Below are positions 22,416 through 64,000 of a DNA stretch of 64,000 nt, piece by piece; position 1 is the first letter of the stretch, and each line of letters starts with the position of its first letter. Location: assembly GCA_965218465.1 (NCBI GenBank), contig OZ244623.1, positions 2,868,097 to 2,932,096 of the forward strand, in the 5' to 3' direction. This DNA is from Acidobacteriota bacterium. GTDB lineage: Bacteria; Acidobacteriota; UBA6911; RPQK01; G965218465. Position numbers and translations under genes: made by a program. The notes under the pieces were generated by a model. That model was not told the origin of the DNA. It saw only the letters and a list, made by a program, of their open reading frames with translations, and searched no databases.

Positions 22416-22430
22416 GCTGTCATCAACTCC

Positions 22431-27962: not shown

Positions 27963-27978
27963 GGGTCTATTTCACTCG

Positions 27979-44147: not shown

Positions 44148-44420
44148 TCAGTTTTCCCGACATTGGACGCTCTGGGGCTGGGTGTTGGTGCAGGCGATCG
44201 TGTTGGTGACGCCGCTGGTCAAGTTGGCGCAGACGACATCGATTGCGGTTCTACGGGCCTCCATTTCCGTGGTTCCCGAGGCGCCGGCACAGTCGGTTCG
44301 CCCTTGGTAGGTCAGGCAAACCTGGCAGGTGAACCGGTCGAGGCCCATTGTGGAAAAGATAATGAAAGCGACAAAACCAACGACAACGAGTGCAAAGATG
44401 GTTTTGGCGGCTCGTCCCAT
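44148..44420 (-). CDS. hypothetical small membrane protein with Cys-rich ectodomain
   Basis: MGRAAKTIFALVVVGFVAFIIFSTMG (TM helix), then six Cys (CQVC...C...C...C...C). Confidence 0.3.
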   Translation of the reverse strand: MGRAAKTIFALVVVGFVAFIIFSTMGLDRFTCQVCLTYQGRTDCAGASGTTEMEARRTAIDVVCANLTSGVTNTIACTNTQPQSVQCREN

Positions 44421-44521
44421 AGGTTGGAGTATAAGTTCGCACCTCCCCCTTCTCAACCCCGGCTTCGATCCCGATTCCAGGGCAGACCGATCGTTTAGAC
44501 TGAGGTAGCTCTTTTTGATTT

Positions 44522-47500: not shown

Positions 47501-47791
47501 AATCTGCTCAAGAAACCGGTGCAGTCGGGCCGGCTCTTTTACTGCACGCGAAGAGGGGAATTTCAGGTTATTGAAGTTACCCTGGATGAAAAGAACCGGT
47601 CCAAGTTCCAGTTGGTCACGGATGTGATCGATAAAGCCCTGGCTGAAGGCTTTCTTCCAGCCGCGCCACGAGAGAAGGCCTGCGGCTTCTGCGACTACCA
47701 GCGGGTTTGCGGCCCCTATGAGGAACAGCGAGTGGGCCGCAAAGATCCGACCCGCCTGGCAGATTTGAACCGATTACGGGCATTGCCATGA
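44522..47791 (+). CDS. addB: AddB-like helicase-nuclease subunit (inactivated helicase N-terminus + C-terminal PD-(D/E)xK/Fe-S nuclease)
   Basis: 1089 aa. No Walker A at the N-terminus. C-terminal nuclease motifs GSIDLVE...LRVTDHKTGK and Cys cluster CGFCDYQRVCG. Stop overlaps the next gene's start. Confidence 0.65.
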   Translation: MLQILTSSGMEEALESGRKWLTERVISQAVVVGPSFGVAEDFVLRCSRKKTGFLGFHRLSFLQLAGELATAELALNQRVPITGLGMTALCARATYRCLKEPGLQYFGPVADFPGFSRALGATLPELRSERIDPRKLVEAGSAGGDFHHLLRLYEEEMEQTGLADTADVFRVAKRAVQRASHHYLQAPFVLLFVSPTRLVEREFLAALAEQVPDLLALVIAGDQGGVEALAESLNVEPKAIDDDRYRSDHKLDRLRRFLFLPSTPTEAPPKADDSLEFFSEPGEDRECVEIARRIRFAVKEGICFDQVAILLRSPRTYMPLVEDALRRAGIPGYFTHGTNRPDPAGRAFLALLQCASEGLSASRFAEYLSLGQTPLPDPAGKPPTAGSIPWAEPRNEQLSFKTPLAAPEDPVQAERWNNPEKEPVVAGTLQAPRQWEKLLVDAAVIGGRDRWEQRLQGLARELELQLKTLDREDQSNLAPLHRRIGQLAHLHRFALPLIKRLDELPQQARWQEWLTALEQLAGVALKSPNSVLALISELRPMDEVGPVGLEEVQSVLHDRLSFLRQPPPGHRYGRVFVGTVEEVAGRSFELVFLPGLAEGIFPRKACEDPLLLDELRTRLSLERALDRKRLQERRLLHWAVASVRRRLVISYPRVDLAQGRARVPSFYALDLLRAAEGELPDVSRLEKRAAAASRTRLGWPAPKDRKLAVDDAEYDLALLDPLLSRGDESGEGHARFLIKTNKHLERSLRTRWYRWRPGFKPADGLVDPDPKTLDLLQSWRLSNRSYSPTSLQQFAACPYKFFLYSVHRLRPREEAAAVEQMDPLTRGALFHEVQFDLFSELRSRRLLPPSPDNLGRVQQVAETVFQRVVKKYEEDLAPAIPRVWATEVENLRTDLRGWLREVIRGGPDWIPDRFEFAFGLPLSPERDSESRPEDAVINRGVRVRGSIDLVEKSKTGAALRVTDHKTGKAPSKKALVVKGGEVLQPMIYALAAENLLKKPVQSGRLFYCTRRGEFQVIEVTLDEKNRSKFQLVTDVIDKALAEGFLPAAPREKACGFCDYQRVCGPYEEQRVGRKDPTRLADLNRLRALP

Positions 47792-50700
47792 GCTTATCCC
47801 GCCAACCCTCGGGTCCGGATAAATCGACTTCGGAGAAGCTGATAGCCGAGGACCGCCGTATGCGAGAGCGGATCTTGACCTCGCTGGAAGAGAGTCTGTT
47901 GGTGGAAGCGGCGGCAGGCACCGGCAAGACGACTGTTCTGGTGCATCGTCTGGTGGAAGTCCTCAAGCAGGGAACTGGCATTGATGGAGTGGCTGCCGTC
48001 ACCTTCACGCGCAAGGCGGCCGGCGAGTTGAAGCTTCGCTTACGACAGGGACTGGAGCAGGCGCGGGTTCAGGCCTCGCCCAGCGAGAAGGCCAACCTCG
48101 AAACAGCCATTGCCCGCTTGGAAGAGGCGCGTATCGGCACCATTCACTCCTTTTGTGCCGAGCTGTTGAGAGAACGGCCGGTGGAAGCCGGCGTTGATCC
48201 TGATTTTCAAGAACTGTCCGAAGAGGAAGCTCCCCGCTTCTTTGATCAGGCATTCAAGGTCTGGATCCAACAGAAGCTCGACGAGATGCCGGAGGCTCTG
48301 AGTCGGGTCTTGACCAGGCTGGCCCACCGCCGCCGCTTCGGCAACTTGTCCGCTTTGGAACAAATCCGTGAGGCGGGATGGAAGTTGGCGGAGTGGCGCG
48401 ATTTCTCCGCCTCTTGGCGCCGCCAACCGTTTGACCCTGGGGCCGCGGTGGACCGGTTGTTGAAGCAAATCGCCGAAGTAGCGCGGATCAGCGCCAAATG
48501 TGAGTACCGGAAAGACTATCTTCGTCTTTCTCTACAGCCCACCCGTTTTTTCCAGCGCGATCTCGAAAAGGCACGTGAGTTGGGAGCGCTCGATCCCCAC
48601 GACCTGGAAGCCCGCTTGATCGAGCTGAGCTTCGCCCTCAACAGGGACCGGCGCAAAGGTCGAGGTCTCTTTGTCCAGGGCTATAGCCGCCAACAAGTCC
48701 TGCAGCTACGGGAAGAACTGACCCGTTGCCTGGAAGATTTCAAGGTCCGGGCCGATGCCGATCTGGCCGCTTTGCTGCAGCGGGAGCTACAAGGACTCAT
48801 CGCCCAATATGAGCAGGTCAAACGACGCGCGGGAAGTCTCGACTTTGTCGATCTTCTTATTGGCGCCAGACGATTGATCCGGGACAACCCGACCGTGAGA
48901 GCACACCTGCAGAGAAGGTTTACCCACATTTTCGTAGATGAGTTTCAGGACACGGATCCCCTTCAGATTGAGATTATTCTGTTGCTGGCAGCCGGTGACG
49001 TCAATCAGAGCGATTGGGAGCAGGTACAGGTCAAGCCGGGAAAACTCTTTCTGGTGGGAGATCCCAAGCAGTCGATTTACCGCTTTCGCCGGGCCGACGT
49101 GACGCTTTATCAGCGGGTCAAGGCACAACTCCTGGGGGCCGGTGTCGGCGAGGCTCGACTGAGCCGAAATTTTCGTTCGGAGCAACCGTTGCAGGAAGCC
49201 GTCAATGCGGCCTTTTCCGACGTCATGGATGGGGATCCCGAGGTGGGTCAGCCCGACTATGTCCCCCTTTTGGAGCACCTGCCCGGCAATCCAGCTCATC
49301 CCCCGGTGGTGGCATTGCCGCCCCCGCGGCCTTATGGCTACTACGGGATCACCAAAAAGGCAGTGGAGGAATGCCTTCCCGATACAGTGGCGGCCTTTCT
49401 CGATTGGCTGATTCGCGAAAGCGGTTGGAGTATCCGGGATCCGGAGGATCCGCAAACACTGATTCCGATTCAGCCTCATCACATTTCGCTGCTTTTTCGG
49501 CGCTTCCTTTCCTGGGGAAAGGATGTCACTCGACCCTATGTGCAGGCGCTGGACGCGCGTTCGTTGCCTCACCTGTTGGTGGGATCCCGTTCTTTCCACC
49601 AACGTGAAGAGGTCGAAACCTTGCTTGCAGCTCTCACGGCCGTGGAGTGGCCCGATGATGCGCTCTCTGTTTTTGCCACGCTGAAGGCTTCTCTCTTCGC
49701 CATTCCCGATAATCTCTTGTTACGGTGGCGCCTCGAACTGGGTTCGCTCCACCCCTTCCGCAAGCTTCCCGAGTCGATCGATCCGGATTTTGAGGCCATT
49801 GTCCAGGCACTTGAGCTGTTGGCCGAACTCCACCGGAGACGCAACTCGCGGCCGGTCGTGGAGACGGTCAACGAGATCCTTGAGTTTACGCGGGCCCATG
49901 CAGGTTTCGCTTTTCGCCCCGCTGGTGACCGAGTATTGGCCAATGTACAGAAAATTTGCGACCTGGCTCGCCGCTACGAGACTTCGGGTGGTATTTCTTT
50001 CCGCGGCTTCGTGGAACGTTTGACCGAAGAGTCCCAGCGTCCACGTTCTAACGAGGCTCCGGTCGTCGAGGAAGGAGCGGAAGGTATACGAATGATGACT
50101 CTTCACTCGGCCAAAGGTCTGGAGTCGCCGGTGGTCGTACTTTGCGATATCACCGCCAATTTGGCATCCAGGGAGCCGGATAAGCTGGTAGACCGGAAAC
50201 GCAGTCTCTGTGCCATGAAAACTCTGGGCTGTGCTCCCTGGGAGTTGATCGAAGCGGCTGAGGCGGAGCACCGCAAAGATCTGGCCGAGGGAGTGAGGAT
50301 CGCTTACGTGGCGGCCACCCGAGCCCGCGACCTGCTGGTAGTCCCAGCCGTAGGGGATAAGGCTCTAAAGGGGGGGTGGGTGTCACCCCTCGACCCGGCT
50401 GTTTATCCCGCACAGCATGCCCGACGCAATTCTCGACCCGATCCACGCTGCCCGGAGTTCGGAAACGTCACTGTACTGGCAAGACCGATGCGCTGGGACG
50501 GAACCGTGGAGTCTTCAGTCAAGCCCGGTCTGCACCGGCCCGCGAAGGGCCGGCACGAGGTCGTGTGGTGGGACCCCTCGATTCTCTCGCTCGGGAGCGA
50601 GGGTGGCGTTGGACTACGCCGGGAAAAAATCCTGGCTCGGGATGAGGGGAACCAAGCCGAACGTGGGCTTGAACTCTATCTGGACTGGAAGGAACAGCGA

Positions 50701-51258
50701 GCATTGGATCTGGAAGAGGGCAGGAGACCTGAATTTGAAATACTGACACCTAGCCGGAGTCTGGAACCGCCGGCTCAGTTCGAGCCGAATTTGACCGTCC
50801 AGCAGTTGGAGCGAGCCGCTGGCCGTCCCGGTGGGCGGCGCTTTGGCATCCTGGTCCATACTTTGTTGCGCGATGTAACCCTCGAACCGGATCCGGAACA
50901 AGTCAGGGCGCTGGCCAAGTACCACAGCCGGATCTTGAAGGCTTCGGAGACAGAGCGCGAAGCGGCAGTCGAGACGGTCTTGCGTACTCTTGGGCATCCG
51001 TTGCTGGAACAAGCCCGCACGGCCCGGCGTTGTCACCGGGAATGGCCTTTGCTGCTCCACCTGAAGGATGGTCGAACGGTAGAGGGAATGATCGACTTGG
51101 CCTTCAAAACCGAATCGGGTTGGGTCGTGGTTGATTTCAAGACTGATCTGGACCAGGAAAAACAGGAACAACTCTACCGGATTCAGCTCAGTTGGTATCT
51201 GCTGGCGGTGTCCCGTCTCACGGAGAGCCCAACCCGTGGTGTGCTGCTCGGTGTTTAA
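47788..51258 (+). CDS. addA: AddA-like UvrD-family helicase with C-terminal RecB-type nuclease
   Basis: Walker A EAAAGTGKTTVL, UvrD motifs (FVDEFQDTDP, VGDPKQSIYRFRRAD), C-terminal nuclease GMIDLAF...VVVDFKTD. Confidence 0.7.
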   Translation: MSLSRQPSGPDKSTSEKLIAEDRRMRERILTSLEESLLVEAAAGTGKTTVLVHRLVEVLKQGTGIDGVAAVTFTRKAAGELKLRLRQGLEQARVQASPSEKANLETAIARLEEARIGTIHSFCAELLRERPVEAGVDPDFQELSEEEAPRFFDQAFKVWIQQKLDEMPEALSRVLTRLAHRRRFGNLSALEQIREAGWKLAEWRDFSASWRRQPFDPGAAVDRLLKQIAEVARISAKCEYRKDYLRLSLQPTRFFQRDLEKARELGALDPHDLEARLIELSFALNRDRRKGRGLFVQGYSRQQVLQLREELTRCLEDFKVRADADLAALLQRELQGLIAQYEQVKRRAGSLDFVDLLIGARRLIRDNPTVRAHLQRRFTHIFVDEFQDTDPLQIEIILLLAAGDVNQSDWEQVQVKPGKLFLVGDPKQSIYRFRRADVTLYQRVKAQLLGAGVGEARLSRNFRSEQPLQEAVNAAFSDVMDGDPEVGQPDYVPLLEHLPGNPAHPPVVALPPPRPYGYYGITKKAVEECLPDTVAAFLDWLIRESGWSIRDPEDPQTLIPIQPHHISLLFRRFLSWGKDVTRPYVQALDARSLPHLLVGSRSFHQREEVETLLAALTAVEWPDDALSVFATLKASLFAIPDNLLLRWRLELGSLHPFRKLPESIDPDFEAIVQALELLAELHRRRNSRPVVETVNEILEFTRAHAGFAFRPAGDRVLANVQKICDLARRYETSGGISFRGFVERLTEESQRPRSNEAPVVEEGAEGIRMMTLHSAKGLESPVVVLCDITANLASREPDKLVDRKRSLCAMKTLGCAPWELIEAAEAEHRKDLAEGVRIAYVAATRARDLLVVPAVGDKALKGGWVSPLDPAVYPAQHARRNSRPDPRCPEFGNVTVLARPMRWDGTVESSVKPGLHRPAKGRHEVVWWDPSILSLGSEGGVGLRREKILARDEGNQAERGLELYLDWKEQRALDLEEGRRPEFEILTPSRSLEPPAQFEPNLTVQQLERAAGRPGGRRFGILVHTLLRDVTLEPDPEQVRALAKYHSRILKASETEREAAVETVLRTLGHPLLEQARTARRCHREWPLLLHLKDGRTVEGMIDLAFKTESGWVVVDFKTDLDQEKQEQLYRIQLSWYLLAVSRLTESPTRGVLLGV

Positions 51259-51363
51259 GTAGCGGTTGCTTGCTGACGGTTACTACCTTCGTTCCGGAAA
51301 CCAATCGATTTTGTTAGACTGGCGGCCTGCGAAAGCAAAGCCAACCGAGGTTGTATTCAGATC

Positions 51364-52728
51364 ATGAGTAGACCGTTGCCATCGACGGCTCCCGACGAGC
51401 CCTGGTCTCCTACTTCCTGGCAAAGTAAACCAGTGGCTCAGCTTCCCGTTTATGCCCGAACTGAAAAACTGGAGGAAGTGCTGAGTCAACTGGCCCGATT
51501 ACCACCGCTGGTGACCAGTTGGGAGATCGAAGCGCTACGCGGTCAATTGGCGGACGCAGCCCTGGGAAAACGCTTTTTGTTGCAAGGTGGCGACTGCTCG
51601 GAAAACTTTGAAGATTGCGAGTCTTCGATTATTGCCAGCAAATTGAAGATTCTGTTGCAGATGAGCCTGGTATTGATTCACAGCGGCCAAAAGCAGGTCA
51701 TCCGGGTGGGGCGATTCGCCGGCCAATACGCCAAACCGCGCTCCAATGACCTGGAAACCCGCCAAGGCGTGAGCCTGCCCAGTTACCGCGGCGATATGAT
51801 CAATCGGCTTCCGTTCACCGACCAAGATCGCAACCCTGACCCGGAGTTGCTCTTGCGAGGTTATGAACGGGCCGCCTTGACCCTCAACTTCATCCGCTCG
51901 CTGATCGACTGCGGCTTTGCCGATCTCCATCATCTCGAGTATTGGGAACTCGACTTTGTAGCGCACTCTTCTCAAGCCCGGGAGTACCAACAGATCGTCC
52001 GTTCTCTCTCCCAATCTTTACGGTTTTTTGAAACCCTGTCCGGCTCCAAACTGGGCGAGGTCGATCGGGTCGATTTCTTTACCAGTCACGAGGGTCTGCA
52101 TCTTTACTACGAACAGGCCCAAACCCGGCTGATTCCGAGAGTCGGTCAATGGTTCGATCTGTCTACTCATTTTCCCTGGATTGGGGACCGAACCCGCTCA
52201 CCCGAGGGTGCTCACGTCGAATACTTTCGCGGTATCCGGAATCCCATCGGCATCAAGATTGGTCCCAGCACGGATCCTGAAGACCTGTGTCGGCTGATCG
52301 ACATCTTCTGTCCGCAGGATGAACCTGGACGGCTCACTCTGATTCACCGTTTCGGCGCCGAGCAGATCGAGAAGTATCTCCCTGTCCTGATTCGGGCCGC
52401 TCGACAAACGGGAAAGACGGTCTTGTGGTGTTGTGATCCCATGCACGGCAACACCCACAGCACCCGCCAAGGCTATAAGACGCGCGACTTTGGCCGCATC
52501 TGCTCGGAGGTCGAAAAGGCGTTCGACATTCACGAGTCTCTAGGGTCTTTTGTTGGTGGACTCCACATCGAGGTGACAGGTGAGAACGTCACCGAGTGCG
52601 TGGGCGGCGCCCGTAAACTGACTGAGGCTGATCTCAGCCAGGCATACAAGACTCAGGTGGACCCACGGCTCAACTACGAGCAGGCCTTGGAATTGGCCAT
52701 GTTGATCGCTCGCCGGCTGCAGAAGTGA
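51364..52728 (+). CDS. class II (plant-like) 3-deoxy-7-phosphoheptulonate (DAHP) synthase
   Basis: GRFAGQYAKPRS, KILLQMS and CDPMHGNT motifs diagnostic of AroA(II) DAHP synthases; 454 aa. Confidence 0.8.
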   Translation: MSRPLPSTAPDEPWSPTSWQSKPVAQLPVYARTEKLEEVLSQLARLPPLVTSWEIEALRGQLADAALGKRFLLQGGDCSENFEDCESSIIASKLKILLQMSLVLIHSGQKQVIRVGRFAGQYAKPRSNDLETRQGVSLPSYRGDMINRLPFTDQDRNPDPELLLRGYERAALTLNFIRSLIDCGFADLHHLEYWELDFVAHSSQAREYQQIVRSLSQSLRFFETLSGSKLGEVDRVDFFTSHEGLHLYYEQAQTRLIPRVGQWFDLSTHFPWIGDRTRSPEGAHVEYFRGIRNPIGIKIGPSTDPEDLCRLIDIFCPQDEPGRLTLIHRFGAEQIEKYLPVLIRAARQTGKTVLWCCDPMHGNTHSTRQGYKTRDFGRICSEVEKAFDIHESLGSFVGGLHIEVTGENVTECVGGARKLTEADLSQAYKTQVDPRLNYEQALELAMLIARRLQK

Positions 52729-52761
52729 ACTCCGCTTTCCTTCACCGGGTGCGTTGCTGAA

Positions 52762-54639
52762 TCAGGAGATTTCGTCGGCGAGGCTTTGGGCCTCGCTCAG
52801 CAGTCGCTCCAATACCTCCAGTCCCGAGCTCCAGAACTGGGGATCGTCGATATTCAGTCCCATCCGGGCGATGAGTCGGGCCGGCGTGTCGCTGCCTCCC
52901 GCCTTCAGCAATTCCAAATATTTGGGTACGAAGCAAGCCCCTTGGCGTTGGTACTGATTCCAAAGAGTCAAGACCAACAACTCTCCGAAGCTATAGGCAT
53001 AACAGTAGAAGGGGGCGTGGACGAAGTGGGGAATGTAAGACCACCAGCGTTTGTAGCCGTCGGTGAGCTCTACGGCCGATCCATGCATCGGTGCATTGAC
53101 CTCCAGCCAGAGACGATCGAGATCCTCGGTAGAGAGCTCTCCTTCAGCCCGTGACCGGTGGATGCTCTGTTCAAAGCGAGTCAGAACGATCTGACGAAAA
53201 ACTGTGGCAACGGAGCTCTCCAGCTTGTGGCACAGGAGTGCCAGCTTGACCTTGGGATCCGCTTGCTGTTTGAGCAAACCATCGAAAACCAGCATCTCTC
53301 CAAAAACACTGGCCGTTTCAGCCAAAGTCAGGGGAGTCGTTTGTTGCAAGATTCCCTGTGGCTGCGCCAAACGCTGATGAACACCATGGCCCAGTTCGTG
53401 GGCCAAGGTCATGACGTCGTTCAGTTTGTCGGTGTAGTTCATCAGGATGTAGGGATGAACCGAGGGAACCGTGGAGCTGCAAAAGGCTCCACCTCGTTTA
53501 CCTGAACGAGGCCCGGCATCCACCCAGTGACCGGAGAAAAACTCGTCAACGACGGCGCCCAAGCTGGGACTGAACTCAGAGTAGGAATCTCTGACGATTT
53601 GGCAGGCTTGATCCCAATTACAGTGGGGGATCGTCGCACCCTTGATCTCAACCGGAGCGTAGCGATCGTAGTCATAGAGCGGAGAGATTCCCAGCAGGCG
53701 GGACTTGAGCCGATAATAGTCCTTCACAATGCAGATTCGGTCTTCACAGGCAGAGACCAGGGCATCTACGGTCTCGCGCTGAATTTCGTTGGCGAGGTGA
53801 CGACTGTCGGCGGGGTCATCGTAATCTTTGAGGCGGCTGTTGACGGCATGATCCCGGAGCAGGGTGTTAAAGACGAAAGTTGTCAGGCGCGAGTCCTTTT
53901 CCAGTCCTCGCGTAAAACCCGCATGCGCGGCTTGGCGGACGGCTCGGTCCGAATGGTGCAGCAGCGCCAGCGTTTCACTTTGGCTCATTGACTGGGTTCT
54001 TCCTTCAAGCTCGACCTCGTAAACGGCAGCACTCGTCGTCTCGTCGAATAGCCGTCTAAAGGCCGTTGCTCCGGTCGAACTCTTCTCAGCCAGAATGATC
54101 TCCTCAGCCTCGCTCAGAGTATGCGGCTTGTAGCGCCGAATGCCGGTCAAAAAGTGTTTCCAGCGCGCGCAACTTGGGCCCTCCACTACCTTGGCGGCCA
54201 CGTCGTCATCGAGAGCAATCCAGTCCAGTTCGAAGAACATCACCGTGGTCCGGACTTTGGTCAAAAGCTCTTCGCTGCGTGCCAGCAGAGCACCGTGGCG
54301 GGAATTGTTGGAATCGGCCGAGTGCAGCAACCGAGTGTAGGACACGACGCGGTAAGCCAAGTCGAGCACCCGCTCGTAATGCCGGAGTGCTTGAGCAATC
54401 AGTTCGGGGCTGGGTCCGGAGGGTACCGCGATCCGGTCCCGATAGCGGTGCACAAATTCTTCCGCGGCCGTTACGGCGTCCTGCTCGGTCTGGGCCAAGC
54501 TGGGATCTTCCGGAGACTCGAAAAGATCGCTAAGGTCCCAACAAACACGCTCGGCACTCAGCCGAGTCGATTTGTTCGCACTAACCGAGGTGGTACCGGG
54601 GGAATCCCTGCCGGGTGCAAACTGGTGAATGTCGGTCAT
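52762..54639 (-). CDS. pepF: M3-family oligoendopeptidase F
   Basis: 625 aa with Zn-site HELGHGVHQ (HExxH) and M3B-family layout. Confidence 0.75.
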   Translation of the reverse strand: MTDIHQFAPGRDSPGTTSVSANKSTRLSAERVCWDLSDLFESPEDPSLAQTEQDAVTAAEEFVHRYRDRIAVPSGPSPELIAQALRHYERVLDLAYRVVSYTRLLHSADSNNSRHGALLARSEELLTKVRTTVMFFELDWIALDDDVAAKVVEGPSCARWKHFLTGIRRYKPHTLSEAEEIILAEKSSTGATAFRRLFDETTSAAVYEVELEGRTQSMSQSETLALLHHSDRAVRQAAHAGFTRGLEKDSRLTTFVFNTLLRDHAVNSRLKDYDDPADSRHLANEIQRETVDALVSACEDRICIVKDYYRLKSRLLGISPLYDYDRYAPVEIKGATIPHCNWDQACQIVRDSYSEFSPSLGAVVDEFFSGHWVDAGPRSGKRGGAFCSSTVPSVHPYILMNYTDKLNDVMTLAHELGHGVHQRLAQPQGILQQTTPLTLAETASVFGEMLVFDGLLKQQADPKVKLALLCHKLESSVATVFRQIVLTRFEQSIHRSRAEGELSTEDLDRLWLEVNAPMHGSAVELTDGYKRWWSYIPHFVHAPFYCYAYSFGELLVLTLWNQYQRQGACFVPKYLELLKAGGSDTPARLIARMGLNIDDPQFWSSGLEVLERLLSEAQSLADEIS

Positions 54640-54825
54640 CGATTCCTCCCGGCGTCAACACGCGATCATTTCATCAGCCGTACTTGAGGTCAAACGACTT
54701 GAGAAGGCAACCAAACAGGCTTACCGGCAGGACCTAAGTCAGGCTCCTCTTACACAAACGGCAAAGAAGGGTCCGCAGCTTCGGCCGGCCGGATCGACAC
54801 GCCGAAGGTCGGCTGACGAGGGTTC

Positions 54826-55851
54826 TTATTCCGGCTCCAATACCGCCAAGAGTGAAATGGGATCGACACGGGTTTGAGCCAATCGCACCGTCCAGTGGAG
54901 GTGAGCGCCCGTGACTCGGCCCGTTGCTCCCACCAGCCCCACCACTTGACCGGTAACAACCTCCTCGTCCTTGCGAACCTCGATGCGAGAGAGGTGACCG
55001 AAATAAGAATAAAGACCCAAACCGTGATCCAAAATGACAGTGTTCCCCGAGTAGTAGAGCGGTGCTGCCAGAACCACTCGGCCGGAGTTGGGAGACCGCA
55101 CCGGTGTCCCCTCGCCGGCACTGAAGTCCGTTCCACTATGAGGGCTGCGCGGTTGTCGGTTGAGTACGCTTCGCTTTCCGAATCCGCTGGTCGGCGCCCC
55201 CGGCACCGGCAGAACGAAAGCTTGGTTCCAAAGTCGCTTGGGGGTCACCGACTTGAAAATTGAGGCAACCTGGCGCGACTCGCGGCGAATGCGTTCCAGC
55301 TCATCGGCTGGAGGGGTCACAAATTTGGGGTCAACGGTCAGATGCCGGGTAGGAAAAGTCTTGCTTGCCACCTTCAACATCAGCTGCCGCGGTTGGAGAA
55401 CTCCATCCACTTCCACGTCGACCGGATAGTCGCCGGCCGGTATAGCGAGGTCAATTCCCAACAAACCCTCCCAATGCTGTGGAGACACGCGAAAACAAGC
55501 AAAGGTCTTGTCCCAGGCCTTCAGCCTGACCTGCTTGGCCGGCTGCGGAAGGCTGAGGGAAAAGCGAACCACCTCTCCAGGGCCTAGGGAGCGGGCGTGG
55601 TGGCGAATCTGGAGTTGGGGATTGGCAGGCGATGGAGAGGGTTGGGCGGCCAGCGAAAATAGCCCCGCGACGCATACCAGTCGAATCCATCCGATCCGAG
55701 TCTTGACTCTTGAGGCCGGTTTGAACACTGTCGATCCTTGCTGGCATGGCTGCGTGCCGCGGGTCGGCGCGCCCATCAGACCCCTGGCGAGTCGTGCGCG
55801 GCCACTACAATAATTGCCTGGTCCGACTAAAACCGCCGTCACCATCTCCAA
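54826..55851 (-). CDS. M23 (LytM) family metallopeptidase, secreted
   Basis: HSGTDFSA...GNTVILDHG...YFGHLS...GAHLHW, the H-x3-D / HxH LytM signature. Signal-like IGWIRLVCVAGLFSLAAQ; true start probably internal to the ORF. Confidence 0.7.
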   Translation of the reverse strand: MEMVTAVLVGPGNYCSGRARLARGLMGAPTRGTQPCQQGSTVFKPASRVKTRIGWIRLVCVAGLFSLAAQPSPSPANPQLQIRHHARSLGPGEVVRFSLSLPQPAKQVRLKAWDKTFACFRVSPQHWEGLLGIDLAIPAGDYPVDVEVDGVLQPRQLMLKVASKTFPTRHLTVDPKFVTPPADELERIRRESRQVASIFKSVTPKRLWNQAFVLPVPGAPTSGFGKRSVLNRQPRSPHSGTDFSAGEGTPVRSPNSGRVVLAAPLYYSGNTVILDHGLGLYSYFGHLSRIEVRKDEEVVTGQVVGLVGATGRVTGAHLHWTVRLAQTRVDPISLLAVLEPE

Positions 55852-55858
55852 GATGGGG

Positions 55859-56452
55859 TCAGCGGACTCTCAAGGTATCCGTGAACTCGTCAAAACTCTG
55901 CTTCCACTTGAGCACGGTTTGATCGGGGCCCGTCAGTTTGAAAAACCAAGGCCCCCCAGTGGTCTCGAGGATGGCCGCCAGCAAACGGAAATTGGGCTTG
56001 GGCGGTCCCGGTGGCGCCATCGGTCCCATGGAAGCCGTGTAATTGCCCGCTACTTCGACAACCGTCACTGTTTGGCCGTCGACCTCTTTGGTTCGGGTTT
56101 CGGCCGAGGCGGCAGCCGAGCTGCCGTCGGCTTGCGTGAATTGACCGATCCAGCGCGAAACGTTGGCCTCGACGCTTCCCCCCTGTCCGGGAAAGTGGAA
56201 AACGATCAGTTCGGCGTCCTCCGGGTCACCCTCAACCCGCGCCAGAAGATATCGATCCTGCCGCATGGGCGAACCGGGGTCGACTTGGGTCCAATCCGGG
56301 GGAGCCTGATAAGTAACAGCGGCGCCGGTTTGGCTGCCTTCAGACTGTGGAAGGGGAAAGGCACGCGTTTCAGTATTAGTAGGGGCCTCATTCGAACAGC
56401 CCAGCATCGACAAGGTTAAAAATCCCAGCCCAGCCCAATTTCTACCTATCAT
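55859..56452 (-). CDS. hypothetical lipoprotein
   Basis: MIGRNWAGLGFLTLSMLGCS (lipobox L-S-M-L-G-C), then a ~175-aa mature domain with no known motif. Confidence 0.45.
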   Translation of the reverse strand: MIGRNWAGLGFLTLSMLGCSNEAPTNTETRAFPLPQSEGSQTGAAVTYQAPPDWTQVDPGSPMRQDRYLLARVEGDPEDAELIVFHFPGQGGSVEANVSRWIGQFTQADGSSAAASAETRTKEVDGQTVTVVEVAGNYTASMGPMAPPGPPKPNFRLLAAILETTGGPWFFKLTGPDQTVLKWKQSFDEFTDTLRVR

Positions 56453-56490
56453 TCTCACCCTCCTTGGAGATCTCTCCAACCCCGGTTCCC

Positions 56491-56889
56491 TCAACTATTT
56501 TCGCCGCTGTCCAACAAGGGGGACCTGCCGGCGAACCCGCTGTCTACCTCATGCCAGTAAGTGATATCTTCTTCGCCGAGTTTCCAGCAAAGGTACACTT
56601 CGCGTCCCTCGCGGACATGGGGGAAGTCGATCAGGCCTTCCTGCACCCCCTTCACCAAACAACCCAGTTCTTGCAGCCGGGTGACTTGAGACCTTAACGC
56701 GACCAGCAAGAGGATGTAGTTGGTGCCGGCGGGGCTGCCGGCATCGTAGGGCCGATGCTCGGCCAAAGCCTGAGCCACCTTGCCATAGCCTTCAAGCTCG
56801 CTGGAGATCCCCACCATTCTGTCAGCCAGCTTTCTTACGGTCGGCAGCAGACTACGCGCTTCGGCGACTGAGAAATAACGTTTGGCCAT
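56491..56889 (-). CDS. DUF2203-like small protein
   Basis: MAKRYFSVAEARSLLPTVRKLADRMV... resembles the N-terminus of DUF2203 family proteins; tentative. Confidence 0.35.
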   Translation of the reverse strand: MAKRYFSVAEARSLLPTVRKLADRMVGISSELEGYGKVAQALAEHRPYDAGSPAGTNYILLLVALRSQVTRLQELGCLVKGVQEGLIDFPHVREGREVYLCWKLGEEDITYWHEVDSGFAGRSPLLDSGENS

Positions 56890-57024
56890 CAGTACGGTAG
56901 CGATTATATAGCAGCAGGCAGAGCTGTTGAATTGTGTTTATACTCAGGTGTTGGAGCTTTTCACCGTCTCATCGCTCCCGCGAAAGGGAAATCTACCGCG
57001 GCGCCGGAAGTAGGCCAGCAGCCC

Positions 57025-57663
57025 ATGAAATGCGTGATTTGCCAGCGGCGCAAGGGGAAGCGCCCATGTCCCGCCAAGGGTGCGAGCATTTGCTCCCAAT
57101 GCTGCGGGGAAAAGCGAGTGATCGAGATCGATTGTCCCGCCGACTGCCATTACCTGACTGCTGGGCAGGCGTACCACGTGGGGAAGAACTACGTCGCCCA
57201 TCTCGTCAGCCAACCGGACTTGGAACGCCGGAAAGTGCTCTATGAGACCAGTTTGAAATATGCCGAGCTGATCGATCGGGTGGAAGCTCAATTGGCGCAG
57301 GCTGCTGCCGGGACTCGCCTCCTTGAGGATGGCGAGGTGAAAGAAGCCTTTGAACTTCTGATCAAGAACTATCGCACGGAGCAAAGCGGTCTCGTCTACT
57401 CCCACTCCAGCCCCCGCCCTCAAGTTCAATTCTTGGTGCGCGAGTTGGGAGAATTCCTGGAAGGTCTACGCCAGCAAGCCAAGATCGGCGAGACCCCTGG
57501 GCTGGGGCTTGAGGACCTCATCTGTTGCCTGGATTGGTTGGGGTCCAAAGTGGACTTTCAACTCAAGAAACAGGGTGGAGCGGGACGGGATTATCTCAAG
57601 CTGGTGGCCAGAAGCCACCCCGAGAGTCGACCCAAAGCTTCAGGGAAGCTGATCTATCCCTGA
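57025..57663 (+). CDS. hypothetical Cys-rich (zinc-ribbon-like) protein
   Basis: MKCVICQRRKGKRPCPAKGASICSQCCGEKRVIEIDCPADCHY at the N-terminus; the rest is helical with no motif. Confidence 0.35.
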   Translation: MKCVICQRRKGKRPCPAKGASICSQCCGEKRVIEIDCPADCHYLTAGQAYHVGKNYVAHLVSQPDLERRKVLYETSLKYAELIDRVEAQLAQAAAGTRLLEDGEVKEAFELLIKNYRTEQSGLVYSHSSPRPQVQFLVRELGEFLEGLRQQAKIGETPGLGLEDLICCLDWLGSKVDFQLKKQGGAGRDYLKLVARSHPESRPKASGKLIYP

Positions 57664-57792
57664 AGAACCACCAATTCCGGACATTGGGTCTGAGCCGGGC
57701 GGGATTTCATTGGCGGAGCCTTGCGAACCGCAAAGGCAAAGGATCGGTCAGACTCGGCGCCGCGATCTGTGCATTCCGCTCGCGGTTGCCAT

Positions 57793-58512
57793 TCAGTAAC
57801 GCCACTCTTCGTGAGCAAGCGGCGCCTGGTTGAGTTGGTCTCGACGCAGGCGCCACCCAGGCATGAGACTGTCCATCAGGCGGCGAAACCGATCGTTGTG
57901 ACTGCGCTCGATCAAGTGGACCATCTCGTGCACCAGGATGTACTCGAGGCAGGAGGCCGGTTTCTTCACCAGTTCAAGATTCAGCCAGACGCGCCGGGCC
58001 TCTCGGTTGCAGGTTCCCCAACGGGTCCTCATCTTCCTGATGCGAACCTCGGCGACGCGCGCGCCTACTCTCGGTTCCCATTTCTCGAGCAGCGCCGGCA
58101 AGCGCGCGCGGAGCCGAGACCGATACCAGCGATGAAGTATCGCCTCCCGCTTGTCGCGGTTGGCACCGGGACGAATCCGCAGCCCCATCCTGGTGTTGTT
58201 GAGCAGGCGGACGGTGGGCGGAGCGTCGCGCTCGGTTACGTCGAGCCGGTAGCGCCGGCCCTCGAAGTAATGGCTCTCACCGCTGACGAATTCCCGCTGG
58301 GATTGTCGATCCTGTCCCACGAATTCGGCCTGCCGCCGGCGTCCGGTCGGTTCCGTTGATCCGCCGTGGTCGTCCTCCCGACAGGCTTCGAGATATGGCG
58401 TTCGAGCCGGCTTCCGGGAGGTCGATTCTGACCGCTGAAAAGTGGAGTTTCGTGCCGATCGGGGAGTGCACATGGGACAAAGGGGGGCATGTGCACGAAA
58501 GAGTCCTCTCAA
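57793..58512 (-). CDS. DUF45/YgjP (SprT-like, M48-type HExxH) metallopeptidase
   Basis: WGTCNREARRVWLNLELVKKPASCLEYILVHEMVHLIERSHNDRFRRLM, the DUF45 WGSC...HEL.H signature. N-terminal ~40 codons of the ORF are doubtful. Confidence 0.6.
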   Translation of the reverse strand: MRGLFRAHAPLCPMCTPRSARNSTFQRSESTSRKPARTPYLEACREDDHGGSTEPTGRRRQAEFVGQDRQSQREFVSGESHYFEGRRYRLDVTERDAPPTVRLLNNTRMGLRIRPGANRDKREAILHRWYRSRLRARLPALLEKWEPRVGARVAEVRIRKMRTRWGTCNREARRVWLNLELVKKPASCLEYILVHEMVHLIERSHNDRFRRLMDSLMPGWRLRRDQLNQAPLAHEEWRY

Positions 58513-58968
58513 TGTGCACGTACACTTTTTCCTATCCCGCTGTCCCCTTTACGGTTACGGCTCTACTCCCGGACTCGCCGTGCCGATCGGGGATTTCGGA
58601 GGTGGACGGGAGCGACCCCCCCTTTTTGCCTCCCGGATCGGCACTGCGGGGCAGGCTGATGTGCACTGGCGTGCCCTCACCTGGGAGGGGCGCTCCCGTC
58701 CCAACAATCCCTGCGGGAAGGCTCGGAGGAAGACTGCAAGTGGAACCTTCACCTTTCAATGACAGTCCCTGCGAAAATCGTGGGCGGGCTCCAGCCCTAT
58801 CCCGAAGGGAATTTTCCCAGATCACCTTCTTGTGCTCTAGTCTTTGGCATGTGGGAGCATGGGGCAACTGATTTGGAGGAACCGGTTTGCTACCGACATC
58901 CTATGCATGTCGGACTCTACGGGTAACATCCGCGTGGGGATTTGGCATAACAGTTCGGAGGTGACTAA

Positions 58969-60162
58969 ATGGCCCGCATGATCGATCTCGAAGCGCTGCT
59001 GAAAGCCTGTGATGACGATGCATTTGACGACGGTATCCGGTTCGATACGGAGCTTGTACCCCTTGGCGGGCCAGGCAGCCCAGTCAAGCCAGCAGTCTAT
59101 GAAGGTGGGACCTACCAGCAGGATCGCCGTTGGGCCGCACCCGATGATACCGAGTCCACGCCAGTTATCGTGATCGACAACGTGCCGTCACAGGCCAACC
59201 GGCTGGAAGATGCCCTCCGCCGCCACCGCGAATCAGTAGGCATACCGGAATTCATTCTCGACTTCTCCGATATGGCCCATTTGCCCGCGCATCTGCCCAG
59301 ACAATTGTCGAGCCTGAAGTTCCCGCATCGCAACGCTGACGCCTATCTTCGAGATGCCGAACTCGACGGCAAGGACTTCATCCAGACGGACTTGGGGAAG
59401 CAGATCTTTGGCGCCACTGCCCAGACCTGCGGACCGCTGATGGCGTGGTTCCCGCAGGCCCTGTTATACGGGTTCTGGCAGTCACACCTGGGCAAGAAGC
59501 GGTCCAACACCAAGCATGCGCGCGCCTGGGTCTCGGAGATCATCGGATGGAAGCCAGCGGCGGCAGACACCAAGGTGTTCGGCCTGAAGGGAGATCCTCT
59601 CAACCTGAACACGGACGAGGCCCTGATTTCGAACCCGAATGACCGACTGGATTGGGGGATGGGGAAGGCAAGGATCGAGGGTGGGAAGAAGGACAAGCTC
59701 TCCGAGATCGGGCATGGTCAGGTTCCTTTCATGGGTGACCAGGCAACCGCCGCGGCTGTTTCTTTCGCGCGAGTGACCCAACGGGCGACCGTATCCTTCG
59801 CGCAACTTCGGCGAGTGAGTCTTGGCCCAGGTCAGCAGGCGGCCGATTCCGCAGCCCGTGCCCTGTTGGTGGCCCTCGGTCTCCACGCCCATGTGCTGGC
59901 TTTTGGGCGCGGCTTCGCCCTTCGGTCGGGGGCCGACCTTCGGCCAGCCAAGCCCACCACAACATGGCTGGGGGCCAGGGGCGATGCCCCCTGTGAGATT
60001 GGTGGTGCGGAAAAGACCGCCGAACTGCTTGGCACTGCATTTGACGAAGCCCGATCCGAGGGTGTTCCACTCGATGGTTGGGATCGCGAGCCGTTGCACC
60101 TCACACCGAAGAACAATCTCCGCAAGGCCATTCTTGCCAGCTGGCCGGAGTTGGCGGACTAG
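58969..60162 (+). CDS. type I-G (I-U) Cas7 (Csb1/GSU0053-family) candidate
   Basis: 397 aa, first gene of a coupled csb1-csb2-cas3 trio. Assignment rests on position, size and the Gly/Arg-rich RAMP-like composition; no diagnostic motif confirmed. Confidence 0.5.
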   Translation: MARMIDLEALLKACDDDAFDDGIRFDTELVPLGGPGSPVKPAVYEGGTYQQDRRWAAPDDTESTPVIVIDNVPSQANRLEDALRRHRESVGIPEFILDFSDMAHLPAHLPRQLSSLKFPHRNADAYLRDAELDGKDFIQTDLGKQIFGATAQTCGPLMAWFPQALLYGFWQSHLGKKRSNTKHARAWVSEIIGWKPAAADTKVFGLKGDPLNLNTDEALISNPNDRLDWGMGKARIEGGKKDKLSEIGHGQVPFMGDQATAAAVSFARVTQRATVSFAQLRRVSLGPGQQAADSAARALLVALGLHAHVLAFGRGFALRSGADLRPAKPTTTWLGARGDAPCEIGGAEKTAELLGTAFDEARSEGVPLDGWDREPLHLTPKNNLRKAILASWPELAD

Positions 60163-61577
60163 TGCTCGCAATCGAAGTCGAGCTGCTACACGGAACCTTC
60201 CGCGGGGACCCGGACGGAACCGCCAACACCGGGGGCTTGACCCGCGGCGAATGGCCACCCGCTCCCGCACGCCTCTTCGCAGCGATCGTGGCCGCCGACG
60301 GGACCGGGGATCGATGCCGCGTTACCGATGGTTCCGAGCTGGAGTGGTTCGAGCGACTTCCTCCGCCAGTGATCCACGCCGATGCCGCTCCGTGCCATCA
60401 GCGACTCAGGCGGCGCTATGTGGTCCGGCACGAAGGCAGCGCCGCGAAGTCGACTCATCCGCAATACCTCGGCAGGATTCCCGTTGAGATCCGTCCAGGT
60501 GTACGTGTTGCCCCGCGGGAACCCCACGTCGTCTACGTCTGGGACGTGCAGGCATCCGGCGAAATGGTCGATGCCCTCCGGCGCAGGGCCGCTCGAGTCG
60601 GCTATCTCGGAGCAGCCGACTCCCCCGTACGCATGCGGGTTGGAACGAGTGCCCCGGAACTAGAGGCTTTCGAGGAGCCCTTCGTGCCCGACCCGGCAGG
60701 TACTGTGGAAATCTGCGTTCCCGAACAGGGGGACCTGCAAGTACTCGACACTATGTACCAGGCTTGGACCAAGCACGGAGCCAACATCGCCCGCACCCAG
60801 TTCGGTGCGCTTCGCCATCAGGTCAGCTACCGTGCTCCGGGCCGTGCCCAAAGGCAAGATTTGGGCTTAGTCGTTGCTTGGTTGCGTTTGGAAGACGCTG
60901 TTTCGGGCCGACGGGTCTCGGTGGTGACAAACATATTCAAGAAAGCTGTGCTCAGTCGTCATCAGGACATGCACGGTGAGCCACCACCGGTTCTTCATGG
61001 GCACGGCTTCAAGGGCAAGGGCTTCGATTTGGCACGATTTCTGGCCCTGCCTGACGCGGGATTCCCCCGGTCCCGTGGGCGTATTCACGGGATCGCCCTC
61101 TGGCTGCCTCCCGGCTGCAAGCCTGACCTGCAGTCTCGGGTCACGGAAGTGGCGTACTCGATCCGCCGCCTGACCGGAGCTGGTGTGGATGTGGCGGTGA
61201 GTCCGTGGATCGACGAAGACCGCCCTGTCGCTTCCAACCCTACACGGTGGACGCGGAAAAGCCGCTGCTGGGTCACAGCGTTTCCGGCTCTTCACGAGCG
61301 CCGGGGCGAACTCGACCTGCAAGAAGTTGCGCGGTGGTGTAGGCACGCAGGCCTTCCTCCGCCCCGCGCTTTCCGGTCGGCTCGCTGTCCGCTTGTTCGC
61401 GGTGCCGTGGACTTGGCCCCGATTGAGGCAAACCGGCCCGGGCGGCCTGGGCTTCCGTATTCCCACCTCAAGATCTGGTTCAACCAGCCCGTGACCGGCC
61501 CGGTGGTCATAGGGGCGGGTCGGCAGCGGGGCCTTGGACTATGTGTGGACGCTGACGATCGCGAGGGCGATGCATGA
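60162..61577 (+). CDS. type I-G (I-U) Cas5/Cas6-fusion family protein (Csb2/GSU0054-like)
   Basis: GTG 60162 overlaps the csb1 stop (TAGTG). N-terminus ...LLHGTFRGDPDGTANTGGLTRGEWPPAPARLFAAIVAADG matches the Csb2 'EWPP.P.RLF.ALVAA' signature. The listed ORF 60078 start lies inside csb1. Confidence 0.6.
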   Translation: MLAIEVELLHGTFRGDPDGTANTGGLTRGEWPPAPARLFAAIVAADGTGDRCRVTDGSELEWFERLPPPVIHADAAPCHQRLRRRYVVRHEGSAAKSTHPQYLGRIPVEIRPGVRVAPREPHVVYVWDVQASGEMVDALRRRAARVGYLGAADSPVRMRVGTSAPELEAFEEPFVPDPAGTVEICVPEQGDLQVLDTMYQAWTKHGANIARTQFGALRHQVSYRAPGRAQRQDLGLVVAWLRLEDAVSGRRVSVVTNIFKKAVLSRHQDMHGEPPPVLHGHGFKGKGFDLARFLALPDAGFPRSRGRIHGIALWLPPGCKPDLQSRVTEVAYSIRRLTGAGVDVAVSPWIDEDRPVASNPTRWTRKSRCWVTAFPALHERRGELDLQEVARWCRHAGLPPPRAFRSARCPLVRGAVDLAPIEANRPGRPGLPYSHLKIWFNQPVTGPVVIGAGRQRGLGLCVDADDREGDA

Positions 61578-64000
61578 GCGAAGGCCCCGGGCTGGACTTC
61601 ATGCCCACGTTCCCCGCGTTCTATCGGGCAATCAATAACCGTTCACCATTCCCTTGGCAGGCGCGCCTCGCAAACCAGGTTGCCCAGGACGAGACGTGGC
61701 CCGTGGAGGTCGGCATCCCGACCGGGCTCGGAAAGACCGCCTGCTTGGACATCGCGGTTTGGTGGCTCGCTTCCCAAGCGGATCGGCTTCCGGAGGAGCG
61801 TACTGCACCTACCCGGATTTGGTGGCTGGTGAATCGGCGGCTCCTGGTGGATTCCACGGCCGAACATGCCAAGGCAATCCGACGGGCACTTTTGGATCCA
61901 CAAGCGGTCGGAATCAATGGCAACGGGACGCTCGTGATGCGCGCCGCGGCAGCTCGCCTCCGTGCGCTAGCCGCGGATAGTAATTCTGATCCGCTGGAGG
62001 TGATTCGCCTTCGTGGCGGAGTCCAGTCACGCGTTCCCACCGACCCGTCGCGACCCTCCGTTTTGCTGTCCACCCTGCCGATGTTCGGCTCTCGTCTCCT
62101 GTTTCGTGGCTACGGCTCAAGTCGCTCGATGCGCCCCATTGACGCCGCGCTCAGCAGCACGGACAGCCTGGTTCTGGTTGACGAAGCTCATTTGGCCAAG
62201 CACTTGATCCGCCTCGTGCCGGGTCTCGCCGAGTGCATCCGGTACGCCCGGCCCGTCCTGGGCCGCAGGAGATCGAGACCTCAGGTGGTGGCGCTGACCG
62301 CGACGGGCGACGCGTCGGTCCACGATCGATTCGACCTCGATGCCGACGACGAGGCCAATCCGATCGTACGACAGCGTCTCGATGCATCGAAATCGATGCG
62401 AGTCCGGTCGGTGGCGCGCGATGCCGCAAAGGGGATGGTGCAGGAAACCCGATTGCTCCTGAAACAGGCAGCCAGACCGGCGAACTGCATCGTGTTCGCC
62501 AACACACCGGCGACAGCCAGAGCTGTCTATGACGAGCTTACCTCCACGCGCGGGAAGGGCTTCGGCCACCCGTCCGATATCGTCCTGCTGACAGGGCGAA
62601 CGCGAGAGCGTGAGGCCGAACGAACCCGCGAGCGCGTCCTGGATCGGGCCAACGGCATGCCAGCGTCCCGTGATCCCGCGGCTCTGCGGGAACGCCACCT
62701 GATCGTTGTCGCCACGCAAACGCTTGAAGTGGGCGCCGACATCGACGCCGAGTACTTGGTGACGGAGACATGTGGCGTACGCGCACTGACGCAGCGGCTG
62801 GGGCGTCTCAACCGCCTTGGCCTGTTCGAACACGCCAAGGCAGTCTACGTTCACGCGCCGGCTCGAAAGCGTAAGGGGCAACCGACCGGTGCTGCCCCGG
62901 AGTGGCCGGTCTACGGGACCGAGCCGGCGAGAGTGCTTGCGCGGCTTGAGAAGGCGATGGATGGTGCGGGCGCTGCCAAGGTGTCACCTCGCAATGTTGC
63001 CACAGTGCTTGGCAAGCCGGGAGACGACGCCGACCGCGCCCCGGAGATCTTGCCGGGTCTCCTCTGGGAATGGGTGAAGACGACTACGCCACCCGAAGGC
63101 GAAGCGCCGGTCGAATTGTATTTCTCGGGCATTTCCGGCGCCAACTACGCTGTGTCTCTGATCTGGCGCGCGCATGTTCCAACCCAAGGAGAACGACTGT
63201 GGCCGCGGGCAAGCGACCGAGAGGCCATCGCGGTGCCGATCGGCGAGGTGCGCCAAGCGCTGGAGAGCGACGGCGAATTGCGAAGGCTCACCTCTGACGG
63301 TGTCACCATCGAGACTGTGGCACCGGGCGAGATTCGTCCCGGCGATGTCCTTGTGCTGGCCATCGACCGAGGACTTCTGGATGAATTCGGGTGGAATCCG
63401 AATTCATCACTCCCGGTCGTCGACATGTCCATCGAGACACACGGCGTGCCCGTGCATGCTGACGCGCTGAAACGACTGTGCGGCGTGGGGGTTGGTAGTC
63501 TCGTCAACACGGCGCTGGGGATCGTCCCGGACGACGCGGATGTAGATGAGGCCGATCAGGCTTCCGCCGTCGTGGAGATTGTCGAGGCCCTGAAGGTCAC
63601 GACCGCGTTTGGTTGGGATGAGACCGAGTGGAACGAGGTCCTATCCAAAATCCAGCCACGGGTGATCAGCTCAGCCAACGAAGTTTCTCGTCTCGTTCTC
63701 CAGAAACCAGTGGATCCCGGGGAGCGGAGCGATGAACTAGATGAGACTTCGCTGGCGGCGAGCGCCGTCGAACTGGAAGCTCACGGGGTGGCCGTCGGAG
63801 CCCACGCGCGGTTGATCGCGGAGCGTATCGGAATCTCCAGCGAACTCGTCGAAATCCTGGACCTTGCCGGCCTCCTGCACGATGTGGGGAAGGCCGAATC
63901 GCGCTTTCAGCGGTGGCTTGATCCACAAGCCAAGTCGCCCAAGCTTCTCGCCAAGTCCAGCACGCCGCGACATCGTTGGGCCGCTACGCGCAAGGTAGCA
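61574..64000 (+). CDS. cas3: Cas3 helicase-nuclease, type I-G(U) arrangement (helicase N-terminal, HD domain C-terminal); 3' end beyond window
   Basis: ATG 61574 overlaps the csb2 stop (ATGA). Motif I GIPTGLGKTA, motif II LVLVDEAHL, motif VI-like QRLGRLNR. Near the window end ...HARLIAERIG...LAGLLHDVGKAESRF is an HD motif. Open reading frame with no stop through 64000. Confidence 0.8.
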   Translation, partial: MSEGPGLDFMPTFPAFYRAINNRSPFPWQARLANQVAQDETWPVEVGIPTGLGKTACLDIAVWWLASQADRLPEERTAPTRIWWLVNRRLLVDSTAEHAKAIRRALLDPQAVGINGNGTLVMRAAAARLRALAADSNSDPLEVIRLRGGVQSRVPTDPSRPSVLLSTLPMFGSRLLFRGYGSSRSMRPIDAALSSTDSLVLVDEAHLAKHLIRLVPGLAECIRYARPVLGRRRSRPQVVALTATGDASVHDRFDLDADDEANPIVRQRLDASKSMRVRSVARDAAKGMVQETRLLLKQAARPANCIVFANTPATARAVYDELTSTRGKGFGHPSDIVLLTGRTREREAERTRERVLDRANGMPASRDPAALRERHLIVVATQTLEVGADIDAEYLVTETCGVRALTQRLGRLNRLGLFEHAKAVYVHAPARKRKGQPTGAAPEWPVYGTEPARVLARLEKAMDGAGAAKVSPRNVATVLGKPGDDADRAPEILPGLLWEWVKTTTPPEGEAPVELYFSGISGANYAVSLIWRAHVPTQGERLWPRASDREAIAVPIGEVRQALESDGELRRLTSDGVTIETVAPGEIRPGDVLVLAIDRGLLDEFGWNPNSSLPVVDMSIETHGVPVHADALKRLCGVGVGSLVNTALGIVPDDADVDEADQASAVVEIVEALKVTTAFGWDETEWNEVLSKIQPRVISSANEVSRLVLQKPVDPGERSDELDETSLAASAVELEAHGVAVGAHARLIAERIGISSELVEILDLAGLLHDVGKAESRFQRWLDPQAKSPKLLAKSSTPRHRWAATRKVA

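Follow-up and report, generated by a model that had tools for sequence, protein, structure and literature searches.

The 64,000-nucleotide (nt) stretch of DNA analysed here (the window) covers positions 2,868,097 to 2,932,096 of contig OZ244623.1 from an Acidobacteriota bacterium (assembly GCA_965218465.1). Its right-hand end carries three genes of a type I-G (I-U) CRISPR-associated (cas) operon, in the order csb1-csb2-cas3 (Table 1). The csb1 ATG is preceded by a GGAGG box 8 nt upstream, and the genes are joined by the TAGTG and ATGA couplings that a first-pass annotation of this DNA had pointed out: the csb2 GTG start (60162) overlaps the csb1 TAG stop, and the cas3 ATG (61574) overlaps the csb2 TGA stop. 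The csb2 start is also backed by relatives, in which residue 1 of csb2 is already part of the match and follows immediately on csb1. No frameshifts occur in csb1, csb2 or cas3, and the cas3 frame is open to position 64000, where it ends at the window edge and not at a stop codon. The cas region has a guanine-cytosine content of 62-64% compared to ~58% for most of the window.

Family assignments bear out the type I-G operon proposed by the first-pass annotation, and the three models that it had named as checks (TIGR02570, TIGR02165 and TIGR02621) all score above their cut-offs, well outside what chance would give. The 397-amino-acid (aa) csb1 product is the Cas7 protein that it had been taken to be, and it belongs to the GSU0053/Csb1 family, with 54.8 bits for TIGR02570 (NCBIfam curated cut-off 38) and 111.8 bits for PF09617; the Pfam and TIGRFAM models span only its first ~195 residues. 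Its best structural match is the solved I-G effector, a link that only fold comparison gives; a sequence-profile search of the PDB had no significant match. Csb2, whose presence is the signature of type I-G, matches TIGR02165 at 200.4 bits (cut-off 45) over model positions 1-490 of 492 and the PADLOC model Cas56g at 260.9 bits, and the EWPP.P.RLF signature noted earlier can be read in it as GEWPPAPARLF. The Cas3 fragment in the window scores 504.9 bits with TIGR02621 (cut-off 400) and contains the motifs GLGKT, DEAH and LLHDVGK. Its HD motif region (residues 734-786) lies C-terminal to the helicase, as had been claimed and as is the I-G hallmark; the protein is a Cas3 of the GSU0051 family. 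The PADLOC models Cas7g, Cas56g and Cas3g agree with the NCBIfam calls.

Sequence beyond the window edge is provided by a near-identical metagenome contig. Exact-sequence look-ups with Csb1 and Csb2 of the window had returned no contig, and the GTDB representatives do not include the source genome. A protein search recovered a 934-aa Cas3 (P0001) that is 100% identical to all 809 Cas3 residues of the window; it scores 601 bits with TIGR02621 over model positions 2-854 of 854, and its cas3_HD match at residues 734-866 again places the HD domain at the C-terminus. The contig that encodes it (L019; ENA ERZ25067264), 7.8 kb long and covered 2x, agrees with window positions 59031-64000 at 99.4% identity and runs 2.8 kb further. 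In this extension, the end of cas3 is followed by a ~300-aa gene of the NF049934 family that overlaps the cas3 stop, then by cas4 (TIGR00372, 127.7 bits) and cas1 (TIGR00287, 206 bits), the latter with at least 299 codons in frame.

The same succession of genes is conserved among distant relatives. Twenty-three related loci were fetched for comparison; in all of them csb1-csb2-cas3 is kept with the ~300-aa gene behind it, and in most of them separate cas4, cas1 and cas2 genes and an array of 37-nt repeats come next. Eighteen (L001-L018) belong to GTDB genomes of Gemmatimonadota, Latescibacterota, Spirochaetia, Bryobacterales, Chloroflexota, Ca. Poriferisodalis, Gammaproteobacteria and other groups; their Cas3 proteins share 48-64% identity with that of the window, 64% being the best value found there. 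The csb1-csb2-cas3 order is kept in all GTDB-genome loci that extend upstream (16 of 16). A ~300-aa gene followed by cas4 and cas1 is present in each of the 20 loci examined at that stage, and cas2 occurs wherever the contig reaches. Closer relatives, with 86-89% Cas3 identity, lie on four unannotated metagenome contigs (L020, L022, L023 and L024): in L022 (89%) the seven genes are all intact and their stops and starts overlap, and L020 has all seven with a frameshifted cas1. Cas4 (~204 aa) and Cas1 (~338 aa) are encoded by separate genes with an overlap of a few bases in L019 and in all relatives, and are not a Cas4-Cas1 fusion. The protein families concerned are large, with 925 cluster representatives for Csb1, more than 2,200 hits for Cas3 and 1,048 hits for the ~300-aa family.

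The surroundings of these cassettes were also noted. The closest ones (L020 1-7400 and 19800-22800; L022 15500-20100; L023; L024) lie among tyrosine integrases, several transposases and MobC/NikA/MbeD-like genes, which, together with IS3-family elements that interrupt or replace cas4 and cas1 in L023 and L024, suggests that they are carried on mobile elements and that decay is ongoing. The seven-gene cassette of L001-L018 occurs in metagenome-assembled genomes (MAGs) from seven or more phyla. Several of these MAGs have names that refer to sponges (Ca. Poriferisodalis, Ca. Palauibacter, SB0664 and RHO1 bins), a distribution that suggests broad horizontal spread within one putative habitat.

Of the 21 cas-bearing loci whose sequence continues beyond cas2, 20 are flanked by an array of 37-nt repeats, with 5-94 copies each. 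The array usually begins ~200 bp after cas2; in three loci, those of Ca. Aldehydirespirator, it lies upstream of csb1 and is inverted (L014 71-6914, L016 3682-6686 and L017 3788-6487). No array was found within 10 kb in L024. The repeat ends at its 3' side in CTTCGTTGAGCG, which is nearly invariant across loci, and it folds into an 8-bp hairpin whose stem changes are compensatory between loci (GCCGGGG/CCCCGGC, GCCGGAG/CTCCGGC and GGAGGGGG/CCCCCTCC). An array of 37-nt repeats resembling GTGTCGCCGGGGTCTCGGCCCCGGCCTTCGTTGAGCG would be expected in the source genome. In keeping with the first-pass annotation, neither an array nor a related repeat was found across the 64-kb window; the 37-nt repeat of the relatives had no match there with three mismatches allowed, and neither an Rfam nor a tRNA scan of the window gave a hit. 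That annotation had suggested either that the large subunit, the adaptation genes and the array lie beyond position 64000 or that the locus is a minimal or array-less variant. The first suggestion is supported for the large subunit, cas4 and cas1 by L019 and the related loci, and nearly all relatives have cas2 and an array as well; the second is made unlikely by the continuation of L019 into a cas8u1-type gene, cas4 and cas1 and by the arrays of the relatives.

No Pfam domain matches the ~300-aa gene, which its sources label ‘hypothetical’. Each of the 56 members sampled matches NF049934 (‘type I-G CRISPR-associated protein, Cas3-extension family’), with scores for this clade of 40-70 bits that mostly fall just under the 65-bit cut-off, which accounts for the ‘hypothetical’ label in PGAP-style models. 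The PADLOC/Makarova profile ‘Cas8g, CAS-I-U effector_LS’ is matched by 54 of the 56 (best E 1.6e-11), so that the operon includes the Cas8g/Cas8u large subunit typical of I-G. The protein model is mixed alpha/beta without a helical bundle, and its best structural match is the solved I-G effector; here too, a sequence-profile search of the PDB gave no significant match for the family and the link comes from fold comparison only. In the Csx17 large subunit, residues 1-381 form an N-terminal alpha/beta domain, and the C-terminal domain is helical and Cas11-like (PMC9638904). From the modelled fold, we infer that the ~300-aa protein may correspond to the N-terminal domain of Csx17 only. This fold supports annotation of the protein as Cas8g/Cas8u1, and it flags a possibly Cas11-less Cascade.

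It is scarcely credible that the operon belongs to another subtype, such as I-C or a type IV-like system, and that the I-G call is a cross-hit of hidden Markov models. Such a call could draw on Cas1 of the relatives, which scores 346 bits with the I-C model (below its cut-off of 385) versus 281 bits with the Cas4g/Cas1g fusion model, and on cas4 and cas1 being unfused, as in I-C. However, Csb2, Cas7g and Cas3g all exceed I-G-specific curated cut-offs and score far lower with other subtype models, Csb1 and the large subunit both find their best structural matches in the solved I-G effector, and cas5c, cas8c and cas7c are absent. Type I-C was likewise set aside as a known system for comparison: the effector proteins match I-G-specific models only, with no I-C effector models among the matches. 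I-G loci with fused and with unfused cas4-cas1 have both been reported (PMC11237760); lack of fusion marks a sub-variant and does not exclude the I-G subtype.

We conclude, with a probability of about 0.9, that the locus is the 5' part of a complete I-G ‘Cas8u1’ layout, csb1(cas7g)-csb2(cas5/6)-cas3g-cas8u1-cas4-cas1-cas2-array, which is cut by the window edge, and that the cassette arrived horizontally. Several points count against this conclusion. The window ends at Cas3 residue 809, so the downstream part is taken from a near-identical 2x contig and from relatives, and L019 itself stops inside cas1, with cas2 and the array beyond its reach in this lineage. The ~300-aa cas8u1 gene of L019 lies in two frames; assembly error is the probable cause of this split, since L019 also breaks csb1 and csb2, both of which the window carries intact. 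IS3-family elements interrupt or replace cas4/cas1 in L023 and L024, and decay therefore does occur. The large-subunit chain of 8b2x is an AlphaFold 2 model fitted to low-resolution density, which makes the structural match one of fold to fold, and the function of the Cas8u1 layout is predicted by homology.

Some of these points would also fit a degraded or minimal derivative, in which the effector genes are intact, the adaptation module, the array or both have been lost, and the system is interference-only or inactive. Absence of an array from the 59 kb upstream, IS3-family insertions in or after cas4/cas1 in L023 and L024 (the latter being the locus without a nearby array), the frameshifted cas1 of L020 and the split cas8u1 of L019 are all consistent with such decay. 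Nevertheless, we regard it as unlikely for the window locus. The near-identical L019 retains cas4 and a long in-frame part of cas1, arrays are the rule among loci that reach past cas2, and the window genes have no frameshifts. In the 2-5x long-read contigs, frameshifts also affect genes that the window carries without disruption, which indicates assembly error.

The history of the locus can be followed at the left side of the cassette. Upstream of csb1 and divergent from it is an open reading frame (57793-58512, minus strand) in which the first-pass annotation had recognized a DUF45/YgjP HExxH peptidase. The family assignment stands (PF01863, 171.6 bits, match from model position 39) and the HEMVH motif is retained, but the gene proves to be a truncated remnant of a restriction-modification (R-M) operon with no link to the cas operon: only residues 58-239 are DUF45, and a recombination junction at 58341/58342 gave the frame its first 57 codons (58342-58512), which are unrelated. 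The comparison that reveals this is with a 3.17-Mb circular MAG contig (L021; ENA ERZ25069191, ctg587068, also in NCBI), found via a DAHP-synthase search in which the best named relatives were Acidobacteriota and Planctomycetota MAGs at ~66-71% identity. It is conspecific, matches window positions 41351-58341 (17 kb) at 96.9% nt identity and then diverges, with a sharp synteny break at 58341/58342 (L021 16981) inside the DUF45 gene. In L021 the DUF45 gene is intact (244 aa) and overlaps, in a type I R-M operon, the 3' end of hsdR (1049 aa; TIGR00348, 527 bits); hsdR and further type I R-M genes (hsdS and hsdM), with no cas genes, occupy the site where the window has the cas cassette. Identity between residues 58-239 of the remnant and residues 63-244 of its L021 counterpart is 88%, and the first ~62 native codons are lost. 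The known systems to compare with are type I R-M operons whose last gene is DUF45/YgjP-like (M48-like). Of the gene that closes the L021 operon, the C-terminal 182 codons remain in the window; the hsdR side is gone, the cas cassette stands in its place and the remnant has a foreign 57-codon N-terminus. Synteny breaks inside DUF45, L021 has hsdR there, the cas region is richer in GC than most of the window, and in relatives it adjoins integrases, transposases and Mob genes. The most economical explanation is that the cas cassette was acquired horizontally and took the place of the type I restriction operon in this strain, leaving a DUF45 remnant truncated at its 5' end. Two strains of ~97% nt identity with either a type I restriction operon or a CRISPR cassette at one site provide a clean example of a defence-system swap.

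The position of the DUF45 gene, adjoining csb1 divergently, and its preserved HEMVH motif might instead suggest a functional accessory of the cas operon that is co-regulated with it from a shared intergenic region. This is highly improbable: no DUF45 homologue was found beside the operon by tblastn in the 18 GTDB-genome loci or among the genes called in later loci, the L021 counterpart overlaps hsdR where there are no cas genes, and the window gene has lost its native start, with the synteny break falling within it. In the left flank between remnant and csb1, resemblance to relatives is confined to the final ~15-50 nt ahead of csb1. The flank has no repeats and no Rfam match, and a promoter and terminator scan of 58300-59050 returned no sigma-70-like site or terminator; it presumably carries the operon promoter. 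The first-pass annotation was thus right that the intergenic region upstream of csb1 is free of repeats, but its length of 456 bp needs qualification: the non-coding gap may be longer because the first 57 codons of the DUF45 frame are unrelated junction sequence.

The window contains other defence genes (Table 1). A Druantia-like defence operon, recognized with PADLOC models, extends over 19940-33969 on the minus strand, and the GmrSD-type, Druantia-like and CRISPR loci together make the window defence-rich. Two large adjoining genes of 1089 and 1156 aa (44522-51258, plus strand) have L021 counterparts with a PD-(D/E)XK domain and with UvrD-helicase and PD-(D/E)XK domains, respectively, and form an AddAB/RexAB-like pair.

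Table 1. Features of the cas operon, its left flank and other defence genes in the 64-kb window (aa, amino acids).
Feature	Coordinates	Strand	Basis or remark
csb1 (cas7g), Cascade backbone subunit, 397 aa	58969..60162	+	TIGR02570, PF09617, PADLOC Cas7g
csb2, Cas5-Cas6 fusion, type I-G signature gene, 471 aa	60162..61577	+	TIGR02165, PADLOC Cas56g
cas3g, first 809 of 934 codons, helicase then C-terminal HD nuclease	61574..64000	+	TIGR02621, PADLOC Cas3g
DUF45/YgjP-like HExxH gene remnant, C-terminal 182 codons	57793..58341	-	PF01863; flanks the cas system, not part of it
Left flank of cas cassette	58342..58968	.	No counterpart in L021 or other loci until ~58955
DruM C5-methylase	31864-33969	-	PADLOC
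DruF	28872-31919	-	PADLOC
DruL4	27979-28875	-	PADLOC
DruE4 helicase, 1843 aa	22431-27962	-	PADLOC, 1779 bits
DruK PD-(D/E)XK nuclease	21249-22415	-	PADLOC
Vsr endonuclease, after Druantia-like genes	20802-21224	-	
HNH_2 protein, after Druantia-like genes	19940-20884	-	
GmrSD_N/DUF262 protein, 591 aa, candidate type IV restriction enzyme	7249-9024	+	PF03235, 105.7 bits

A mechanism for the complete system can be proposed by homology with characterised I-G systems. The Cas6-like C-terminal domain of Csb2 would cut the 37-nt hairpin repeats and stay with the CRISPR RNA (crRNA), as is known for Csb2 of Thioalkalivibrio and Bifidobacterium animalis (PMC9638904; bioRxiv 10.1101/2022.08.19.504415). 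About seven Cas7g copies would form the backbone and, with Csb2, hold the crRNA, and the ~300-aa Cas8g-like protein could act as the large subunit that reads the protospacer adjacent motif and docks Cas3. In the I-G system that has been characterised, Cas3 forms an integral part of the effector (PMC9638904), and the stop/start overlap of cas3 and cas8u1 fits a tight Cas3-Cas8u1 pairing. Cas3g would then unwind and degrade target DNA, and the separate Cas4, Cas1 and Cas2 proteins would add spacers. A broader proposal, to which we give rather less than even weight, is that the Cas8u1-type I-G Cascade comprises Cas7g, Csb2 and a ~300-aa subunit that equals only the N-terminal alpha/beta domain of Csx17, lacks the Cas11-like domain and is translationally coupled to Cas3, with no small-subunit-like module; it would hold separately that the cassette is exchanged among distant phyla, many of them with MAG names that refer to sponges, and swaps with type I R-M systems at a defence site that varies between strains.

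The locus is a known, documented I-G layout with new protein sequences. The first-pass annotation had set its gene order apart from the Geobacter-type layout, and the order does differ, but it is not new: myxobacteria are reported to have csb1-csb2-cas3-cas8u1 (PMC11237760), and for Thermus thermophilus SG0.5JP17-16 the CRISPRone output gives ‘cas7, csb2gr5, cas3, cas8U1, cas4 ...’ (PMC5529391). Shangguan et al. (PMC9638904) point to three variants of I-G, set apart by their large subunit, which Makarova et al. had drawn in 2011 (PMC3150331). The find therefore changes little for CRISPR biology because its apparent oddities are explained by the window boundary and a documented layout. Compared to the ‘cas8u1’ layout of myxobacteria and T. 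thermophilus, the order and gene set are the same (csb1-csb2 then cas3, followed by a short Cas8u1), Cas1 and Cas2 are likewise unfused and the repeats are 36-37-nt hairpins. There is no categorical difference; the protein sequences are new, Cas3 being 48-64% identical to its counterparts in GTDB genomes and 86-89% to those on metagenome contigs. Differences from canonical I-G systems are greater. In Geobacter sulfurreducens and Thioalkalivibrio sulfidiphilus, the order is cas3-cas8g(csx17)-cas7-csb2-cas4/1-cas2 (PMC6547450, PMC9638904; PDB 8ane, 8b2x), whereas here the effector genes stand before cas3, the large subunit has ~300 aa instead of ~720 aa and, by secondary structure, no helical Cas11-like C-terminal domain, and cas4 and cas1, instead of being fused, are two genes that overlap in different frames. 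Csb1, at ~400 aa throughout the clade, also exceeds the solved I-G Cas7 (316 aa; PDB 8ane_A) by ~80 aa. The I-G system of B. animalis, in which Csb3 is the presumed large subunit, shares with the present one a Csb1 and Csb2 core and a third subunit that is not Csx17 (bioRxiv 10.1101/2022.08.19.504415; PMC3150331). The third subunit here matches NF049934 and the PADLOC Cas8g (I-U large subunit) profile and no other model of those libraries, which were not checked for a Csb3 model; its position after cas3 is a further difference.

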